Source of the DNA: Mycoplasmatales bacterium
GTDB lineage: Bacteria > Bacillota_I > Bacilli_A > Mycoplasmatales > JABAAY01
Direction: 5' to 3'
Assembly: GCA_014238225.1 (NCBI GenBank)
Contig: JABABL010000004.1
Coordinates: 1 to 62,538 of the forward strand
DNA: 62,538 nt
Part shown: positions 1 to 59,273 of the stretch, piece by piece
How the letters are laid out: every line of letters begins with the position of its first letter
How positions within the stretch are numbered: position 1 is the first letter of the stretch
The notes under the pieces: generated by a model
Told to the model about the DNA's origin: nothing
Databases searched by the model: none
Seen by the model: only the letters and a program-made list of their open reading frames with translations
Made by a program: the position numbers and the translations under genes

Positions 1-1488
1 TCCTCCTTCAGTTGTTATAAAAATCGAATTTTCTAATATCCCAATAACATTATCGCCAGTAACAAATAGTGGATCAAAAGAGGGATTACTCAAAATAATA
101 GAGGTCATTGCAGTAACACTAGTATCTACAATTCTTACTGCCGTAAATAATGCATCCCACAACACTTGCGCACTACTTACCCCGCCCGGTGGCCTAGACG
201 TTAAACCATTAATACCCCTTGCTTCATTTAATAAGGTTTCACCGGGAGTTGGTATAGCTATTAAAGAGCCTACAGGATTATTAACAACGGGAGTTGAGGC
301 AAATTGACCAGTTGTTTCGTTTACAGAAATACCTGTAATTACAATTTCTGTATTCAAGTTAGAATATGTTGTTATTCGTCCACCCTCTGTAGTAAAAGTC
401 ATGGTTCCAGGATTAATTGTTGCTACAGTATTGCTTGTATTAGTAAATACAAAAGTATTAAGACTTGTGATGCTTATATTAGTGATTGCACTTATGTTTA
501 TATCAACACTATCAGTAAATGCATTAACAAATGCTTGATATAATAAAAAACTATTAGTTCCCACAGAAGGGGGATTAAAAGAACCTGTTCCGTTTAGTCC
601 GCGAGCTGCTCCAGTAATAACTTCGTTTGCAAAGTAAACAGGAGAAAGGCCACTAACTGAACTTGAGGTAGTAGAAATAGCGTTACCTGTGACAAAAATA
701 TTAGAAATCACAAAATTTTGATTTGAATTGTTAAAAAGATTTACGCCACTACCATCGGTATTTAAAGAGAGGATGTTTTGGTTTATTGTTATTTCAGAAC
801 CCGAAGGAGAAACCCGAACTTCTTGCATTTGTTGTGACTGCGGAACAGATAAATTGATAGAAGAAACGACAGTGGTTGAAGAGTTTGGTTCCAAACTTTG
901 AATTTGCTGCAGAATTATTTCATAAAGAGCTAATTGATTAACATCTGTTGGAGCATTAACTCCGTTTAGACCATTAATTAAAGAAATGAATGTGTCTTGT
1001 ACAAATTCACTGTTCGTTGTTGAGGGAACTAAAGAATCCGAAGAAATCATTAAATTTATAAGCGAATCGCCGAGTGTTGTTATATTGGAAAAAATTAAGT
1101 TAGTTGAATTTACATAAGTTTCATACGTTCCTCCGGCTACTCCTATTGTCATTGTATTTGCAGCAATCACAACGGTGTTTTCGGTGCGGTTGATAGTGAT
1201 TGAAGATACAGGGGTTAAAACATTAATAGAATTAATGTTTTGAATGTCACTTTCATTGTTTGTTTGCAAGTTTTCTAAAATAGTTCTAAAAATTACACCT
1301 TGATTACTAGTTGGGTTGGGAATGACTGCTGTTTCGCTTAATGCAATTAATGCAGACTGAACTATGTCTTCGCTGGATAATCCACTAGGGGGTGTGTTTC
1401 CACAGGCTTGTGCTATCGAAGCAGTCGCTATTCCTCCACCTACAGCAGCACTTGTTAGAGCTGCAACAATAGTGGATTTCTTTTTCAT
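1..1488 (-). CDS. Large surface lipoprotein with ~120-aa degenerate repeats (partial; 3' end runs off the window)
   Basis: Manual translation: MKKKSTIVAALTSAAVGGGIATASIAQA-C29 (basic N-region, hydrophobic H-region, lipobox-like AQAC). Frame is open for 496 codons to the window edge and is N/S/T/I-rich. Not in the ORF track because there is no stop in the window. Confidence 0.85.
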   Translation of the reverse strand, partial: MKKKSTIVAALTSAAVGGGIATASIAQACGNTPPSGLSSEDIVQSALIALSETAVIPNPTSNQGVIFRTILENLQTNNESDIQNINSINVLTPVSSITINRTENTVVIAANTMTIGVAGGTYETYVNSTNLIFSNITTLGDSLINLMISSDSLVPSTTNSEFVQDTFISLINGLNGVNAPTDVNQLALYEIILQQIQSLEPNSSTTVVSSINLSVPQSQQMQEVRVSPSGSEITINQNILSLNTDGSGVNLFNNSNQNFVISNIFVTGNAISTTSSSVSGLSPVYFANEVITGAARGLNGTGSFNPPSVGTNSFLLYQAFVNAFTDSVDINISAITNISITSLNTFVFTNTSNTVATINPGTMTFTTEGGRITTYSNLNTEIVITGISVNETTGQFASTPVVNNPVGSLIAIPTPGETLLNEARGINGLTSRPPGGVSSAQVLWDALFTAVRIVDTSVTAMTSIILSNPSFDPLFVTGDNVIGILENSIFITTEGG

Positions 1489-1495
1489 ATAATTA

Positions 1496-1501
1496 ATTAT
1501 A
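1496..1501 (-). promoter_or_regulatory. -10 box (TATAAT) 7 nt upstream of the lipoprotein ATG
   Basis: ATTATA on + strand at 1496-1501 in the divergent intergenic region. Confidence 0.5.
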
Positions 1502-1551
1502 AATGTTTATAAGAAAAAGATAATTAAAAATATATTTGTGATATTTCTATT

Positions 1552-1557
1552 TACAAT
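1552..1557 (+). promoter_or_regulatory. -10 box (TACAAT) 6 nt upstream of rsmE ATG
   Basis: Same 6-nt spacing recurs at many genes in the window. Confidence 0.5.
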
Positions 1558-1563
1558 AAAACA

Positions 1564-2253
1564 ATGCAACACTATTTCGTTCCTAAAAAAGAAGATGAAA
1601 AAGTTTTTTTCTACGAGTTAGATATTTTTCATATTAAAAAAGTAATGCGTTTTAAAAATAATCAGAAAGTAATAACTATCAATAACGGTTATCACTATGT
1701 TACAGAATTGGTGATTAAAAATTCTTCTGTTGTAGGAAATATTGTTGAAAAACTGGACGTGAATAATGAGAACATTAACAAAACATCAGTATTTGTCTCA
1801 ATTCTCAAACCCAAAAGATTTAATTATTTAATTCAAAAAGCTTCTGAATTAGGAGTTAATGATATTTTCCCGGTTATTTCGGAACGCACTGTAACAAAAT
1901 TTAATTCCGAAAAAGAAAAGGAAAAAAAGATAAAACAATGGAGATGAATTGCGAAAGAAGCGGCGGAACAATCCGAGAGAAACTACATCCCAAGAATTCA
2001 TTCCATAAAAACTATTGATGAGATAAAACCCGGACCAAGCGCGAATTATTTAGCCGATACAAAATTACGAACAACAATGACTAAAAATATTCAAACAGTA
2101 GATGAAACATGTTGTGTTTTTGGTCCAGAAGGAGGATTTAGTTCGAATGAGATTGAAATCCTTCATGAAAAGGGATTTAGTAGTATTTCTCTAGGGAAAA
2201 GGATATTGCGATCCGAGACCGCTCCTGTTGTTTTTCTTACACTATTTCTCTAG
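1564..2253 (+). CDS. rsmE: 16S rRNA m3U1498 methyltransferase
   Basis: HIKKVMR, QKASELGV, AKEAAEQSER, FGPEGGFS and LGKRILRSETAP motifs; TGA read-through to TAG at 2251. Confidence 0.95.
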
Positions 2254-9290: not shown

Positions 9291-11336
9291 GTGTTAGAGA
9301 AGGAATTAAATTTTATTCAAACAGAAGAATCAGAATGTGGAATTGTTTGTATTTTACATTTACATTACTTATTCTTTCAACGAAATATACCAAAATCACA
9401 AATTAAAAGTTTTGAGCATGTTCCTGAAAAGGGTCTAAATCTCAATAGTTTAAGTTTTATTGGTAGACAATTAGGTGTTTCAATTAGTTGATTTAAAGTA
9501 GATTATGATGCATTTCGAAAGAGAAAGCTAAAACATTCTATTGTTTTAATAAAAAAGAAAAATGTTTTTCACTATGTTATAGTCAATAAAATTAAACATA
9601 ACACCGTTTTTTTTGTAGATCCAAACTACACAGAAATACAAACTATGTCATCGAAAGATTTTGAAAAAATTTTTCGAAATACAGTTGGAATAACTAGAAA
9701 GTCAAACTTCAATTTATTCTACATAAATCAACTTAGCGGAATCCAAACCAAGAGTTTTGCAGATGTTTTCAAGCAATTTTTTAATTATCGTGTGTATATA
9801 GTTTTTGTTTTTTTATCATCTTTTATAGTATTTCTCTTAGGATTGTTTTCCGGTTTATATTTGCAAATAGTATTAAACACAATCATCCCAAATAATTTAA
9901 CTACATTGTTATTAAGTGTGTCAGGAATTTTCATATTTACCACTATTTATAAAAATATTTTTGATTTTCTTATGAAACTGTATTTGTTTAAAATTCAATC
10001 CTTAATTGAAGGAGATTTTGAATATTTTTTTCAACAACAAATATTTTTAAAAACCAGTGTGTTTATTCAGAATACGGAGCCAAATCTTTACTTTCAACGA
10101 TTAGGAAACATTGGAGAATTAATTACTAATGAATTACAAAAAAGAATTTTTGTTCCCATAAATTTAATCATAGGAGTGATTTCAGTAGTTATTATTTTCA
10201 CAATAAATATTTATCTTGCTGCTGTGTCATTATTTTTTGTAGTCATAATTTTATTACTAATAAATCTGTTTATAAATAAAATAGTGACATCAAAGAAGAA
10301 CGTATTAAAAATTACTAATAAAAAAAGATCCCTTCTAACTAAAGTGTTTTTCAATAACGCCTCGATTAAAGGGAAAAATGATAGTGATAAAATTGCTGAT
10401 CAACATTCTACAATACTGAAAAAATATATTTCTACAGTAACTAAAGATCATTGAATTAATTCATTTTTTGTCTTCAACAATTCCTTGTTTTCGGGAGTAT
10501 TGAGTGTTCTAATTGTTTTTCTTGGAACAGTATTTATTATCGCTAACCAATTTACTGTGGGTTCTTTATTCTTTTTCACTACAATTTTTGGTATTTTTCA
10601 ATCATCTTCCTCTCAACTCTTCAATTTTCTTGTCAATATAAAAAAAAATAAAGTTAACTTAGAGTTAATAAATGACTTTCTTAACTCAACAACAGTAGAA
10701 TTTTACAAGGGAGTTAGTGAAAAAGTTAATTTTCATAAAATACTATTTAAAAATATTTCTTACTCCTACGAACATAGTAAAAAAATTCTCAACGGACTTA
10801 ATGGTGAAATAACTTCAAACTTATTAATACAAGGAGGAAATGGAACTGGTAAATCAACATTTTGTAAAATAATTGCAGGTATTCATACGCTTCAAAATGG
10901 AGAATTATTAATTGATGACATTTCAATTAGTGATATTTCTCACTATTATCTAAGAGAAAATATTTTATATATTTCTTCCAATTCTATAATTATAGAAAAC
11001 ACAATTTTTGATGCGATAAAAGACTTTCTGTTCACGTTGCAAGAAACAGAAAGAAGTTTCTTGTTATCGTTGTTACAAGAGATGAAACTAAACTTAAAAC
11101 ACGACATTGAATGAGATGGGAGCAACTTATCTGAGGGTCAAAAACAATTTATTAATTGTCTACCTATTTTTAATACAAAAAGCAAAATTTTAGTTTTAGA
11201 TGAGGCATTCTCCAATATTAGCATTCTGATAGTGAGAAAAATAATATCACATTTGTCAGCCAGGGGAAAAGTGATAGTTTACGCAACTCACGAGAAAGGT
11301 GCAGAGGATTTATTTCAGAAGCAATTATTATTATAA
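9291..11336 (+). CDS. Peptidase-containing ABC transporter (C39 peptidase + TMD + NBD)
   Basis: QTEESECG (catalytic Cys), FHYVIV (His), FVDPN (Asp); 6-TM-like region; Walker A GGNGTGKS, signature LSEGQ, Walker B LVLDEA, H-loop ATH; 681 aa in code 4. Confidence 0.9.
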
Positions 11337-11722
11337 TGAAAAAGAATTTTAATAAAACAATTTGAATTTTTACGTCTGTTGCGAGTTCATTTGCAATAAT
11401 TTTTAGTCTATTTCTTATTTTGCTTCCGATTGAAGTTACCACAACAAAAACAATTCAAGTTACATCTCGAAATGATGTGGTGCTTTTAATTCCGGCTAAT
11501 GAATTACAAAATTACGATGATAAGAAAACCCTTAGCGGAAGTATTGATAATACTGAATTGCTTTTCAATATATTTAGCATAAGTATTAGTGAAAGCAATC
11601 CTTCAATTTATGAATTAGTCTTAACAACTACTAGTGACTTAAATTTCATTCCCGGTACAGTTTTACCTTTTAACATAGTGCTATCGAGTGTTAAATTGTG
11701 AGAATATTTATTTTTACTATAA
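11336..11722 (+). CDS. Single-TM protein translationally coupled to the C39 ABC transporter (putative export accessory factor)
   Basis: ATG overlaps the transporter TAA (TAATG); N-terminal TM followed by a beta-rich domain ending VKLWEYLFLL. Confidence 0.7.
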
Positions 11723-55058: not shown

Positions 55059-55347
55059 GTCAATTAATGTTATTCGTAAAACTATTATAAAGAGTTTTTA
55101 GCTGACAATACACAAAATGTAAAAAATTTTCGCTTTTGCTTAAGTTTATAAATTCTATAAAATTGTCCTCTTTTTTGGTTTGAATGTTCGGATTACGGAC
55201 TTCGATGAAATAGTTTATCGAACCAAAACAAATAGCACTAACGCCCGCGCAAATTAAATCTTTGGATTTTGTAGCACTTCCTGAATGGCCTGAAATAGAT
55301 ATACTTTTTACTATATTATTAGAAGTTCTAACTTCTACATTAATCAA
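55048..55347 (-). CDS. prp: Ribosomal-processing cysteine protease Prp
   Basis: SGHS...DLICAGVS; lies between rplU and rpmA. Confidence 0.9.
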
Positions 55348-55348
55348 T

Positions 55349-55648
55349 TTATTTAGAAACTTCCGTTATTTTAACTCTCGTGTGAAGCTGCTTATGACCT
55401 TGTTTTTTATGATAATTTTTTTTTGGTTTATATTTAAAAACAATGATTTTTTTGTCTTTGCCTTGTTTTTCAACGATTCCTTTAACCTTCGCTTTTTTTA
55501 CATAAGGTCTGCCGAAAATACCATCAACATATACCACATTCTCAAAAACAACTTCATCACCTGGTTTGCTTTCCAATTTTTCAAAATAAATAATTTTTTC
55601 AGGTTCTACTCAGTACTGTTTTCCACAAAGTTCAATTATTGCTTTCAT
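55349..55648 (-). CDS. rplU: 50S ribosomal protein L21
   Basis: MKAIIELCGKQYWV...G.PYV...KKIIVFKYKPKKNY.KKQGH. Confidence 0.96.
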
Positions 55649-55675
55649 AATAATTAATGATACATTAAATTAGTC

Positions 55676-55707
55676 TCTTTATCTAAACAAAATAACAAAG
55701 ATAAAGA
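55676..55707 (-). terminator. Weak inverted repeat immediately after the GG-leader peptide gene
   Basis: TCTTTATCT (55676-84) / AGATAAAGA (55699-707): 9-bp stem, 14-nt loop, AT-rich. Confidence 0.25.
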
Positions 55708-55708
55708 A

Positions 55709-55972
55709 CTAGGTATAGTAGTATCCAGGTGTGTAATTAACGTTATTGTTAATCTCTTTTGGTTTTTCACCTGACATGGATCATTCAGCAGAAAAACCAC
55801 CGGGTAATGTTATCTTTGCTTCTTCTGCTGATCACAACTGTTTGGCAGTAGGAATAGCAATGATTGAGAATTCTACAACACCTATTAAGGAATTTATAAA
55901 TCCACCAACATCAAATGCTCCACCGTAAATTTCCATCATTTCTTCGTCATTAATTTTTTTTCAATTTTCCAT
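55709..55972 (-). CDS. Double-glycine-leader secreted peptide precursor (bacteriocin-like), 87 aa
   Basis: Manual code-4 translation MENWKKINDEEMMEIYGG|AFDVGGFINSLIGVVEFSIIAIPTAKQLWSAEEAKITLPGGFSAEWSMSGEKPKEINNNVNYTPGYYYT; strong SD GGAGGAG at 55983-55977. Confidence 0.8.
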
Positions 55973-56024
55973 ATAACTCCTCCATTTATATAGGATGAAA
56001 TTAGAGTAGTAATGGATAAATCAA

Positions 56025-56495
56025 CTACCCAATGAACATAATTTTTACAGAGTAAGGTTTATTAATGCCTTTGATATTGACAATATCCCCAACGCTGTGT
56101 GTTAAAAGAGCTCTTGCGAGTGGAGATTCATTTGAAATCCTTGTTTGCTTTTCGGTTAAATTAACTTCTAGTGGTCCTACAATCAATATTTCTCTTTCTA
56201 TGTTAGTCTTCGTGTTTAAGTACTTAACTTTGCTACCCAATCTAATAACAGAATTGTCTTTTTCACTTTCTATTATTATTGAATGAGCCAAAATATTTTC
56301 TAGTTCTTTAATTTGTGACTCAATTTTCGCCTGATTATTTCTTGCTGCATCGTAATCAGCATTTTCACTTAAATCTCCCTGTTCACGCGCTGTAGTAAGT
56401 TCTTCAATGACTCTAGGTCTTTGAACGTTTATTAAATCTTTTAAGGTTTCTCTTTTTTCTGCTTGGCCTTGTTTTGTTAAATATATTTTTCTCAT
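56025..56495 (-). CDS. greA: Transcription elongation factor GreA
   Basis: AREQGDLSENADYDAAR, ISNESPLARAL; AGGAG before ATG 56495. Confidence 0.96.
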   Translation of the reverse strand: MRKIYLTKQGQAEKRETLKDLINVQRPRVIEELTTAREQGDLSENADYDAARNNQAKIESQIKELENILAHSIIIESEKDNSVIRLGSKVKYLNTKTNIEREILIVGPLEVNLTEKQTRISNESPLARALLTHSVGDIVNIKGINKPYSVKIMFIG

Positions 56496-56555
56496 AGTGC
56501 TCCTTGGACATTTCTTATTATAAAGAAACATTTTATTTATGTGTTTATTAAATGG

Positions 56556-59273
56556 TTAATTAATGTTTTTTAATCCATTCACTAAAATTGTTTTCAATTC
56601 TGCAACAGTGTTTTCGTTGTTCAAAATAACGCCCTGAGCAAAAGAAGGTTTGCCACCTCCGCGAATTGAAAAGGAAGATTTAAAAATACCTAATATAATT
56701 GTGGAATTTATACCCGAACCAATGAGTGCTTGACTACATCAGATAACAAATGTATACCTGTTATTTTCATTCTTTTGAATGAGTATTATCAATAATTTTT
56801 CAGATGTTTTAATAATTTTGTCACATGCTTCTTTATATACAGTGATGTCGTCGTTGATTTCTTGGAGTAAATATTTAAAATTTGCAATTTTCTTAATGTT
56901 ATTTTCTAATTCGTTTTCGTATTTAACGTCGTACTTATCTTTTTTAGTGCTTTTTTTGTCAACAATAATTTTGTTACTTTTCAAAAAATAGATTTGTTCT
57001 TTCAGATAAAAATAATCTTCAAAAGTTATGTTTTCTTTTGACAGTATTTTTCTAATCGTGGAATATTTGTGATGATGTTCTGGTAAATCAGATATTGGTG
57101 CTTTTTTTAAAAACTCATGATGTAGGTTAATAAATTCTTTTTTATACATCTTTAAATAATCGGCTATGGTGTTGCTGGTGGTGCAAGCTTCAATTCGTCA
57201 ATTATGCAATCCATTTTTGCGAAAGTCCGTTATTAAAAATTTTTGAAGTTGTTGTGTATTAGAGGAATGTGTTCCGCCGCACAATTCCTTCGAAAAATCA
57301 CCATAACTTAGAACTCTTACTTTTTCAGAATATGTATCCGGAAACAAAGCTAGTGCTCCTTCATCTATTGCTTTTTCATAAGTTGTCACACGAATATTTT
57401 GCTCATGTGATTCTTCAATTCATTTATTGACCTGTTCATTTACTTTTCGTATGGTGTTTCAATTTATTCCAAGATGGTGAATAAAATCAAAACGAAAATT
57501 TTTGACTCCCACCTTGCTACCGTTCTGAGTTACATGAGGACCTAGAATTTTTCTCAATGCTGCGTTGAGAAGGTGAGTGGCAGTATGGTTACATGCAATG
57601 GCGTATCTGTTTTCTTTATTTATAGTTAAAGATGCTTTATCGCCAGTTTTAATTTTACCAACACCATAACCGTAATGTAAGTTGACATTATTTGTAGTGT
57701 GCAAGACATTGTCAACTACAAAATAATTATCTTTATCAATAATTATTTTCCCAGTATCAGCTATTTGTCCGCCTCTTTCTGCATAAAAAATAGTTTTATC
57801 TAGAACGATTATTCCTTTTTGATTATTAGAAATAGAACCATTTATTTCATCATCAGTGATGATTGCAAGGACATTGCTTTTAGATAAGGAGTCTTTCCCA
57901 TAAACGAATTCAGTTTTTACTCCTAATATTTTAGATTCTATTCCACTAATTTCTTTCATGGCTTCTGTAAATTTAATAGCTTTTTTTGATAATTCTGTGT
58001 GTTTGGAATATTCATTTTCAAATTCTTGTTTGTTTATTTGTTTTTTATTGTTGGTAAAATAATCTTCTATATACTCAAATGGCAATCCAAAAGTACTAAA
58101 AAGACGAAAAACTTCTTTTCCTTCTATAGTTGATTTTTTGGAATTAACCAACACTTCTTGTAAAATGCTGTGTCCAGATTTGCACACATTATCAAAGGAT
58201 ATCTCTTCGCCAAGAATAATTTCTTTAATAAATGCTTCTTTTTCTCTTAACACTTTGTATTCATTTCCGTATATTTGAATAACACTTTTCACTAAGTTGA
58301 AAAGAAATGGTTCAGTTAATCCTATTTTTTTACCGAATGTATTGGCTCTACGTATTAACCTTCTCATTACATAGCCTCTGTCTTTGTTACTAGGAAGCAC
58401 TCCATCACCCAATCCAAAACAAATTGTCTTTATATGGTCAACAATGATTCTTCTGTAGATAAGAAGTGTTTTTTCATCTAATTTATGAGTTGTATTTTTA
58501 AGCATATTGTCAAAACGTTCTAAAATCGGTGTGAACAAAGATATTTCGTAAATGGTGTTTGCGTTTTCTTTAATCATGTGCAATCTTTCTAAACCTGCAC
58601 CTGTGTCTATGTTTTTTTTGGGTAAATCCTCATATTTATCATTCCCCAAAAAATTATATTGTGAAAAGACAATATTTCAAATTTCGATATATCTATCGTT
58701 CTCTAAGTCGTGTTTTAAAAGGTCTGTTCCTTTGTTTTTTAAGTCTCACACTTCACCTCGATCATAAAATATTTCGGTATTAGGGCCGCATGGTCCTTCT
58801 CCAACTTGTCAGAAATTAGTTTTTTTTGGACATTTGATAATATGTTTAGTAGGAATTTTAATAATGTCTTTCCAAATTTCGTATGTCTCCTTATCTTTTT
58901 CATAAACTGTTACAAATAAACGTTCTTTTTTTAAATTTAAATACTGAGGACTCGTTAAAAATTCCCATGCATAGATAATGGCGTCTTTTTTAAAATAATT
59001 ACCTATTGAAAAGTTTCCTAGCATTTCGAAAAAAGAAAGGTGTCGCGCGTCAAACCCTATGCTTCCAATATCTATTGTTCTAATACATTTTTGGGAAGAT
59101 ACCATTCTTAAAGATGGCGGTGTTTTTCGTCCTGTAAAAAATGGTTTTAAAGCAGCAATGCCTGAATTAATTCACAGCAATGAGTTATCTTTAAAAGGAA
59201 CTAAACTGGAGCTTTGTAAAAGATAATGACCTCTACTTACAAAAAAATCTTTAAACTTTTTTCTTATATCCAT
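56556..59273 (-). CDS. alaS: Alanine--tRNA ligase
   Basis: LLWINSG, RHLSFFEMLGNFS, IDTGAGLER, FYAERGGQ, NHTATHLL, ELCGGTH, GGGKPSFAQG. Confidence 0.96.

Follow-up and report, generated by a model that had tools for sequence, protein, structure and literature searches.

A double-glycine-leader peptide family as the probable cargo of a distantly encoded C39 exporter in Mollicutes

The window analyzed here, a stretch of 62,538 nucleotides from a Mycoplasmatales bacterium (GenBank assembly GCA_014238225.1, contig JABABL010000004.1), was found to carry on its minus strand, at 55709–55972, a gene for a small peptide (P0001) with a double-glycine (GG) leader. This peptide is probably the cargo of the sole C39 exporter of the genome, encoded far from it at 9291–11336, and the family to which it belongs would thereby be the "missing" substrate of such exporters in much of the Mollicutes. 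The pairing of the peptide with the distant transporter had been proposed from the sequence letters alone (hereafter the original prediction) and is now supported by a conserved leader, intact catalytic residues in the C39 domain, co-occurrence of the two genes among genomes, the presence of one exporter and one candidate substrate in the window genome, and a modeled leader–C39 complex that passed its controls. The window corresponds to contig C44 in an assembly of 60 contigs and 679,536 bases with a completeness of 88%.

The peptide gene, read directly from the sequence, consists of 87 codons and a TAG stop on the minus strand; the plus-strand frame of the same interval is riddled with stops. 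When TGA is translated as tryptophan, the interval gives exactly the residues quoted in the original prediction, W4, W47 and W64 being encoded by TGA. The strong Shine-Dalgarno (SD) sequence that had been noted (GGAGGAG) is present at 55977–55983 on the minus strand, 4 nt before the ATG. From stop to stop the open frame extends upstream to a TTG at 56032, and the ATG at 55972 was taken as the start because the SD sequence sits there and all homologs align to it. A GGAG-like purine-rich stretch within ~15 nt of the start was found in 23/23 homologous ATG-start copies with upstream sequence. In another genome of the same genus (G001) the same open reading frame (ORF) occurs at the same place with all three TGA codons kept, and comparison of the two copies gave 26 synonymous and four non-synonymous differences over 87 codons (dS 0.77, dN 0.02, dN/dS 0.025). 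Because of this pattern of substitution and the strong SD sequence, the ORF is a real gene. Its description as "hidden" holds under translation table 11 only, as the exact protein is already in a public protein collection as an unnamed prediction.

Residues 1–18 (MENWKKINDEEMMEIYGG; 55919–55972, minus strand) form the predicted leader, an assignment based on the consensus of 113 sequences, the complex model and an AlphaFold helix at residues 9–18. The consensus for GG leaders has hydrophobic residues at positions −4, −7, −12 and −15 and an acidic residue at −8, and the window peptide agrees with it at all five positions (I, M, I, W and E, respectively), with G at −1 and −2. Cleavage is predicted after G18 of the G17–G18 pair, which aligns without gaps to the GG of the family; a second pair (G23–G24) lies within a six-residue AFDVGG insert unique to the genus. 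Across the 113-member alignment, position −1 holds G in 98 sequences, A in 12 and S in three, position −2 holds G in 95, and position −4 is hydrophobic in 87, of which 59 have I. Hydrophobic residues occupy −7 in 47/113, −12 in 112/113 and −15 in 113/113, and −8 is E in 58, Q in 19 and D in 11. Leader length is mostly 18–20 residues. Judged from this alignment, the leader of the family is a canonical double-glycine leader, and the residues singled out in the original prediction are all as described, the leader consensus being conserved family-wide. A leader-only hidden Markov model, trained on the 113 members with P0001 among them, recovered the peptide ORF with an E-value of 4e-6 among 11,404 ORFs of the window genome, the runner-up having an E-value of 1.5.

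The predicted mature peptide comprises residues 19–87 (69 aa; 55712–55918, minus strand), as delimited from the alignments and the AlphaFold2 model, and has a computed mass of 7.5 kDa, a net charge of −3 and an isoelectric point (pI) of 4.55. It begins with the AFDVGG insert and continues with a helix (residues 22–48), a beta-hairpin (51–55/61–65) bearing KITLPGGFSAEW, a polar spacer and an aromatic tail, PGYYYT. These elements were predicted by AlphaFold2 from the 113-row alignment with a mean predicted local distance difference test (pLDDT) score of 71.3, the model showing the leader helix (9–18), helix 22–48, the hairpin and an unstructured tail. W64, one of the TGA-encoded residues of the window copy, is nearly invariant across the family. 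A 19-residue stretch with a mean Kyte-Doolittle hydropathy of at least 1.6 is present in the mature part of 106/113 members.

A profile of 20 members, searched against 1.84 billion proteins, matched 112 cluster representatives at E ≤ 1e-3 and 25 at E ≤ 1e-10. The representatives are mostly 60–105 aa long and align end to end, and in the first 20 aligned copies GG follows a leader of 15–22 residues in 20/20. The family architecture is a GG leader, a membrane-length hydrophobic helix, a beta-hairpin motif (LPGG...W or GEIKTK...KW), a polar spacer and, at the C-terminus, aromatic or hydrophobic residues (GFHYCI, PPFYEF, PIYFIY, PGYYYT). In Metamycoplasmataceae the core motif reads KGEIKTKDG..KW, and in the window, genome G006 and a 2-Mb spiroplasma-like genus (g11) it reads K.(L/I)PGG....W. 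Members were found in the mycoides cluster, Mycoplasma hominis, the M. arginini group, spiroplasmas and uncultured relatives. In most copies among the 150 of 198 matches listed there is exactly one in-frame TGA, at which table 11 would cut these ORFs off. Earlier searches underestimated the peptide, a single sequence matching 7/41 relatives and a six-sequence profile 50/399 genomes, and were superseded by a 113-row profile.

The family members are named "hypothetical protein" at NCBI, with a few auto-named "Bacteriocin" in UniRef. Scans of 40 members reported no Pfam or NCBIfam match that reached its cut-off, and bacteriocin-leader models scored best, all below threshold; the best ESM Atlas score was 0.86, under the 0.9 threshold used for leads, with a class II bacteriocin cluster among the nearest clusters. 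No paper describing the family was found in the literature searched. The family is thus unnamed and without a curated model; it is mostly vertically inherited and belongs to the Mollicutes and related small-genome Bacilli.

The exporter (681 aa; 9291–11336, plus strand) is a peptidase-containing ATP-binding cassette (ABC) exporter (PCAT; PF03412, E = 5e-19; PF00005, E = 4e-17) with a Peptidase_C39 domain at about residues 10–133 (nt 9318–9689), followed by ABC membrane and ATPase domains. The solved structures closest to it are those of Streptococcus pneumoniae ComA (8hf7, E = 2.8e-28) and PCAT1 (4ry2, E = 9e-27). Q10, C16, H94 and D110 align with Q11, C17, H96 and D112 of ComA, and the first three are invariant in 21 Mollicute C39 domains. 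On these alignments the peptidase residues are intact and the exporter looks competent. It is the only PF03412 match in the window genome. The best family model is NF045998 (Mbov_0121 family peptidase domain-containing ABC transporter; residues 10–655), which scored 348.8 bits, below its cut-off of 500 bits; the 125 matches over the cut-off in the order are all in Metamycoplasmataceae (f2). At E = 1e-20 this model matched 388/399 genomes and 14/14 controls, that is, generic ABC exporters, and PF03412 was therefore chosen as the exporter marker.

A small gene on the plus strand (11336–11722, 128 aa) starts in overlap with the exporter stop codon and encodes a MAG1140-like protein (NF045999, 25.9 bits; cut-off 35). 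A match to NF045999 (MAG1140 family) lies directly 3' of a C39-ABC gene in eight genomes of four families, and from this arrangement the exporter and the small downstream gene are a conserved two-gene operon. The AlphaFold2 model of the partner (pLDDT 77.5) has an N-terminal transmembrane helix and a beta-rich domain. A Foldseek search of this model against the PDB gave no match at E ≤ 0.001; below significance, the beta-barrels of membrane-fusion proteins were seen (5xu0, E = 0.09, template modeling score 0.44; 2f1m). On this modeled fold the partner could be a much reduced ComB/HlyD-type accessory protein. No paper on MAG1140 or MAG1130 was found in the literature searched. The original prediction was correct in describing an intact C39 transporter at 9291–11336 and had missed both the conserved partner gene and the large peptide family.

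Modeling of the leader with the C39 domain, proposed with the original prediction, was carried out with exporter residues 1–140 (P0137, identical to the window product) and the peptide alignment cut to residues 1–45. The complex passed, with ipSAE scores of 0.66, 0.67 and 0.66 in three runs and 0.00 for the best of three controls; at least 46% of contacts agreed between runs and the partner pLDDT was at least 49. The pass mark is reached by 58/80 solved complexes and by 2/110 mismatched pairs, counts that apply here only roughly since our own alignment was used. In the model the peptide makes contact through residues 2–7, 9 and 11–21, and the exporter through residues 13–17, 47–52, 55, 66–71, 74, 78, 86, 91–95 and 131, with peptide residues 11–21 brought to exporter residues 13–17 and 91–95 and G17–G18 predicted to lie next to C16 and H94. 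Similar leader–C39 complexes have already been solved, and the pass therefore shows likeness rather than binding.

Co-occurrence of peptide and exporter was tallied by hand in 399 genomes of the order, scored with the 113-row profile and with PF03412. The peptide profile matched 197/399 genomes, and PF03412 was present in 332/401. Matches to the peptide were seen in 193/330 C39-positive and in 4/69 C39-negative genomes, so that 193 of the 197 peptide-positive genomes have a C39 domain; co-occurrence, named beforehand as a check on the proposed pairing, was thereby found. The peptide is single-copy, with almost always one match per genome, and the window genome has one C39 exporter and one GG-leader candidate. 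By family, peptide and C39 were found in 129/132 and 132/132 genomes of f2, 4/4 and 4/4 of f12, 3/5 and 5/5 of f14, 9/15 and 10/15 of f11, 16/80 and 64/82 of f15, and 33/131 and 108/131 of f5. The four families without C39 (f13, 0/14; f8, 0/5; f4, 0/2; f7, 0/1; 22 genomes) gave no peptide match.

Among the C39-negative exceptions, genome G021, of the 2-Mb spiroplasma-like genus, has a peptide gene in which the ATG is changed to ATT and the GG to IG. The matches in G199 and G319 are marginal, and G319 is 83% complete. In G375, which is 74% complete, the match looks like a different GG-leader peptide: two tandem ORFs at 1244–1713 (plus strand) of locus L061 have GG-type leaders (..NKEIYGG and ..KKNINGG) and cores unlike those of the window family. 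The f5 matches are weak, and of three loci fetched one was cut by a contig end and held no ORF and the others (G129 and G375) seem to encode other GG-leader peptides rather than this core. The figure of 197 therefore mixes family members with leader-only look-alikes.

The general profile is also limited in sensitivity. A three-sequence profile of genus g19 found one copy in 20/20 g19 genomes (2/20 with the general profile) and one copy in 9/9 genomes of g28, the mycoides cluster (0/7 with the general profile); both genera are 100% C39-positive. By profile–profile comparison the g19 and g28 forms match the window family with a probability of 91.7% (E = 7.6e-7) over 64 columns, core motif included. 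The g28 form is a GG-leader protein of 133 aa that lies between rsmI and rplU in all nine genomes, is 99% identical to a protein of M. feriruminatoris, and shares 83–89% identity with proteins of M. mycoides and of M. capricolum, its subspecies capripneumoniae included; NCBI labels the protein "hypothetical protein" in M. mycoides, M. capricolum and M. feriruminatoris. The absence of a peptide match from many C39-positive genomes is at least partly a limit of sensitivity, and other cargo families exist.

The position of the gene is conserved within lineages. The order is greA-peptide-rplU in the window and G001, greA-peptide-dnaK in G006, and rsmI-peptide-rplU-ysxB-rpmA in 5/5 g28 loci, where the slot upstream of rplU is the same as in the window. 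In four g11 loci the order is rpoD-nif3-peptide-radC, in 3/4 f12 loci fetched it is peptide-radC, and in 3/5 Metamycoplasma loci examined it is lspA-peptide-phosphoketolase. The peptide gene stands beside radC in six lineages other than those of the window and the mycoides cluster. It lies directly upstream of radC at L124 (G530), L128 (G485), L056, L065 and L066 (f12) and L003 (g11). The adjacency of peptide and radC reaches from standard-code small-genome Bacilli to Mollicutes that read TGA as tryptophan, a depth of synteny unusual in small peptide genes. In Bacillus subtilis, radC and rplU-ysxB-rpmA-obg are separated only by mre, min and spoIVF genes, and for this reason the sites beside radC and upstream of rplU may be one ancestral locus.

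Outside the order, a class-wide sample gave family matches in 25/137 genomes, namely in f22 (10/10), f30 (3/3), f37 (2/2), f18 (4/9), f35 (2/4), f21 (2/13), f20 (1/1) and f39 (1/1); 94 genomes of 16 other families gave none. Eleven of these matches were inspected. Eight copies from standard-code genomes (L121–L125 and L128–L130) are 54–60 aa long and consist of a leader, a very hydrophobic helix of ~22 residues and the motif S.(K/E)G...(L/I)PGG(W/F).F.W, followed by the stop; the three f30 copies are 103–107 aa. GG terminates nine of the 11 leaders and GA a tenth, the eleventh being unclear, and radC follows two of the inspected copies. All five genomes with the short form that were tested have a C39 domain, tens of kb from the peptide gene or on another contig.

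From these observations a mechanism can be proposed in which the acidic 18-residue leader would fold into an amphipathic helix and dock in the groove of the cysteine-peptidase (C39) domain within the exporter at 9291–11336. Cys16 and His94 would then cleave after Gly17–Gly18, the ABC part would translocate the product of 69 residues through the single membrane or insert it there, and the small membrane protein encoded at 11336–11722 would probably assist export. Binding is suggested by the modeled complex, and cleavage and export by analogy with ComA/ComC and PCAT1/CtA. Provided that the peptide is cargo, several functions are conceivable for the mature product. A small membrane-resident or self-acting envelope peptide of core physiology is a tentative choice, with somewhat less than an even chance; a signal related to recombination or gene transfer, as hinted by M. 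genitalium RrlA, is doubtful, an antimicrobial is equally so, and the remaining probability belongs to something else.

The RrlA hint derives from the MPN313 family. Weak matches to its model NF045747 were seen among relatives (the best score among 20 relatives being 20.3 bits, against a cut-off of 100), and P0001 gave no match to it at E ≤ 10 and is not an MPN313/RrlA member. The MPN313 proteins of G027 (L131, 1492–1770, minus strand) and G018 (L132, 1498–1767, minus strand) are encoded upstream of mraZ in genomes of 0.6 and 0.8 Mb and start with M..L.K..AKQVVGG, followed by a hydrophobic helix. By this N-terminal pattern, MPN313/RrlA proteins are GG-leader peptides too. A test for homology with the window family beyond the leader gave no support, as the hhalign alignment stops early in the helix and spans 36 columns, leader included. 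MG_220, the homolog of MPN313 in M. genitalium, was later named rrlA, and in the sections of the study consulted the alternative sigma factor MG428 induces MG_220 165-fold, MG_390 3.3-fold and the co-transcribed MG_389 3.2-fold (PMC4446450). The consulted part of a later study reports that rrlA is required for the sigma-20 feed-forward loop and that its deletion abolished RecA activation; there, MG_390 is listed as "sunT, peptide secretion (putative)", RrlA is treated as a sigma accessory factor, and the words "leader" and "glycine" do not appear (PMC6105099).

Several observations weigh against the peptide being cargo of the C39 exporter. The peptide gene is 46 kb from the exporter gene; characterized cargo genes are usually found beside their own exporter. 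When the curated leader models suggested with the original prediction were applied to the window peptide, the scores fell below the cut-offs (TIGR01847, 12.9 against 15.7; PF10439, 15.4 against 27.1), as did that of NF038034 (16.4 against 37). The pass of the complex model may reflect memory of solved leader–C39 complexes, and the fold of the peptide itself in the complex is uncertain. With the general profile, 137 of 330 C39-positive genomes have no peptide match. G030 and G039 have an intact peptide but a C39 gene reduced to a remnant of 26 residues or interrupted by stops; with G021, they suggest a decay of the pair in the 2-Mb spiroplasma-like genus. Related genomes are not independent, so the co-occurrence counts overstate the support, and no statistical claim is made from them. 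A search of sequencing runs for the organism listed DNA from two studies and no RNA. Finally, in the portion of the M. genitalium work consulted, deletion of MG_390 left RecA activation unchanged or nearly so (0.51% versus 0.66% fluorescent cells; PMC6105099), from which it follows that RrlA can act without its presumed exporter.

A further reading holds that the product is a small membrane protein which the C39 transporter neither cuts nor exports. Its GG-type N-terminus would then serve another purpose, and the exporter would have another substrate, for example in lipoyl-peptide import as modeled for JCVI-syn3A 0401. The lack of linkage to the exporter, the intact peptide in the face of a decayed C39 gene in G030 and G039, the independence of the M. 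genitalium rrlA phenotype from MG_390 in the material consulted, and the non-export role proposed for 0401 by Breuer et al. (PMC6609329, consulted in part) are all in favor of this reading. It is nevertheless very unlikely: positions −1, −2, −4, −12 and −15 are conserved exactly as in processed GG leaders, the 22 genomes of C39-lacking families are devoid of peptide matches, the sole C39-lacking genome with a clear family copy (G021) has lost both the GG and the ATG, and the complex prediction passed. In addition, the proposal for 0401, in the passages seen, rested explicitly on the lack of a GG candidate.

Export of the peptide by the C39 system would also be compatible with an ordinary class II bacteriocin, unmodified and with a GG leader, which kills competitors by membrane insertion of its helix. 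Such peptides typically have a leader of this type and a hydrophobic helix with many small residues, and the nearest sub-threshold models are bacteriocin families (PF10439 in 5/20 members, best E = 0.0016; NF038034 and TIGR03949 weakly), in line with the automatic UniRef name of some members and the sub-threshold class II cluster in the ESM Atlas. A bacteriocin would, however, be patchily distributed, whereas this gene is single-copy and near-universal (129/132, 20/20 and 9/9 genomes in f2, g19 and g28) and has a conserved place among housekeeping genes, next to radC or, as in the window and the mycoides-cluster loci, upstream of rplU. The dN/dS of 0.025 indicates strong purifying selection, no immunity-like gene adjoins the peptide gene, the exporter is distant, and the mature peptide of the window is anionic. 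Class II bacteriocins are usually cationic. Because of this combination the bacteriocin reading offered in the original prediction is disfavored, and we regard it as improbable.

A signaling role, also raised at the outset in the form of a ComC-type pheromone, would make the peptide an exported signal or switch component for recombination and horizontal gene transfer, parallel to streptococcal ComC-ComAB-ComX. The MPN313 family has the same build, from a leader ending in VVGG through a hydrophobic helix and a polar spacer to an aromatic end, and its alignment with the window family has a probability of 94.6% (hhalign, E = 6.6e-8), in which only 36 columns of the leader and helix start take part. 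As far as the consulted sections show, rrlA, MG_390 and MG_389 all belong to the sigma-20 regulon, with the strong induction of MG_220 described above, and recombination-based transformation fell below detection on deletion of MG_220 and ten-fold on deletion of MG_390 (PMC4446450). However, the two families have cores that cannot be aligned, P0001 lacks an NF045747 match, and loss of MG_390 scarcely altered RecA activation. No HisKA (PF00512) or response-regulator (PF00072) domain was matched in the 88%-complete assembly, with positive controls in 12/14 genomes; PF00512 may miss ComD-type kinases, and PF00072 should catch a ComE-type regulator. The ComC-type reading is weakened by this result, and the signal explanation is held to be improbable as well. 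The same low standing applies to its broadest form, in which peptide and C39 exporter would be an ancient vertically inherited pair providing a self-made cue, in the membrane or outside the cell, that switches on recombination and cell-to-cell DNA transfer in wall-less bacteria. Under that conjecture the pair would be the Mollicute counterpart of ComC-ComAB-ComX, RrlA/MG_390/MG_389 under sigma-20 would be the single case on which experiments bear, and the minimal-cell lineage would be represented by the protein encoded upstream of rplU in the mycoides cluster.

With regard to the surroundings of the peptide gene, its upstream neighbor on the minus strand is greA (56025–56531), itself preceded by alaS (56556–59273), and its downstream neighbor is rplU (55349–55648), beyond which a ysxB-like gene, rpmA and obg follow, all on the minus strand. 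Inspection of the neighboring ORFs identified no adjoining gene resembling an immunity, modification-enzyme or kinase gene, in agreement with the original prediction. Scanning for promoters and terminators yielded no convincing promoter of the peptide gene (11 promoter-like sites against 7.0 ± 2.9 in shuffles), and an Rfam scan of 55200–56200 returned a single sub-threshold CRISPR-repeat match and nothing else. The 60-nt spacer between the peptide stop and the rplU start (55649–55708, minus strand) is 59/60 identical in the sister species, compared with a dS of 0.77 in the peptide gene. It contains a 13-pair hairpin which overlaps the peptide stop codon (−11.6 kcal/mol, z = −2.05, with 8/200 shuffles folding as well) and has no Rfam match; the spacer may act as a regulatory leader for the rplU operon.

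C39 exporters are retained in 332 of 401 genomes of the mycoplasma order and in JCVI-syn3A (0401), yet in the literature consulted, in part as excerpts, no apparent GG substrate is named. In the sections consulted, Breuer et al. (2019; PMC6609329) describe 0401 as resembling the sublancin exporter with its C39 domain, state, citing Dirix et al. (2004), that there is no GG peptide candidate for mycoplasma C39 proteins, and tentatively model 0401 as a lipoyl-peptide importer because no GG substrate candidate was apparent. The statement in the original prediction that no system of this kind has been characterized in Mollicutes agrees with the literature searched, including these sections, and in automated searches Mollicutes account for <1% of class II bacteriocin matches, reported without detail (PMC7494827). 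A conserved candidate substrate removes the premise of the lipoyl-peptide import role for 0401 and makes the exporter–substrate question directly testable. The M. genitalium recombination regulator RrlA, which proved to be a GG-leader peptide under common regulation with the C39 exporter, suggests a possible route by which antigenic variation and gene transfer are set off. The family itself is a widely conserved small membrane peptide for which the copies used have no Pfam or NCBIfam model above threshold.

Compared with known systems, the window pair shares with JCVI-syn3A 0401 (SunT/sublancin-type) the same kind of C39 exporter in a mycoplasma. The 0401 exporter was described without a GG candidate, whereas a GG-leader protein is present here in 9/9 genomes of the mycoides-cluster genus. 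RrlA with MG_390-MG_389 is alike in being a small GG-leader protein with a hydrophobic helix, unlinked to its C39 exporter, and in having a small gene after the exporter; in G027 a weak NF045999 match (E = 0.0099) lies directly downstream of the C39-ABC gene. It differs in that its core motifs cannot be aligned with the window family, the profile similarity being at the level of the leader only. Class IIb/IId bacteriocins (NF038034, lactococcin G-beta/enterocin 1071B; TIGR03949, lactobin A/cerein 7B; PF10439) likewise have a leader followed by a helix rich in G, A, S and T, and these three are the top-scoring curated models for the family. All three score below cut-off and cover only the leader and the start of the helix, and the family differs from these bacteriocins in its core-genome spread, its anionic product and the lack of an immunity gene.

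The likeness to ComC/ComAB of S. pneumoniae lies in the GG leader, in ComA as the best solved match of the exporter, and in the gene for an accessory membrane protein adjoining the exporter. In contrast, no two-component sensor was found here, the cargo gene is 46 kb from the exporter, and the window family is conserved across the order and beyond rather than being allele-variable. The ComC pheromone is a soluble peptide of 17 aa and ComB a protein of ~450 aa, compared with a 69-aa predicted mature peptide with a membrane-length helix and an accessory protein of 128 aa in the window. In the PCAT1/CtA system of Clostridium thermocellum, CtA is a GG-leader protein of ~90 aa and of unknown function that is encoded beside PCAT1, and PCAT1 is, like the window exporter, a peptidase-ABC exporter, matched by it at E = 9e-27.

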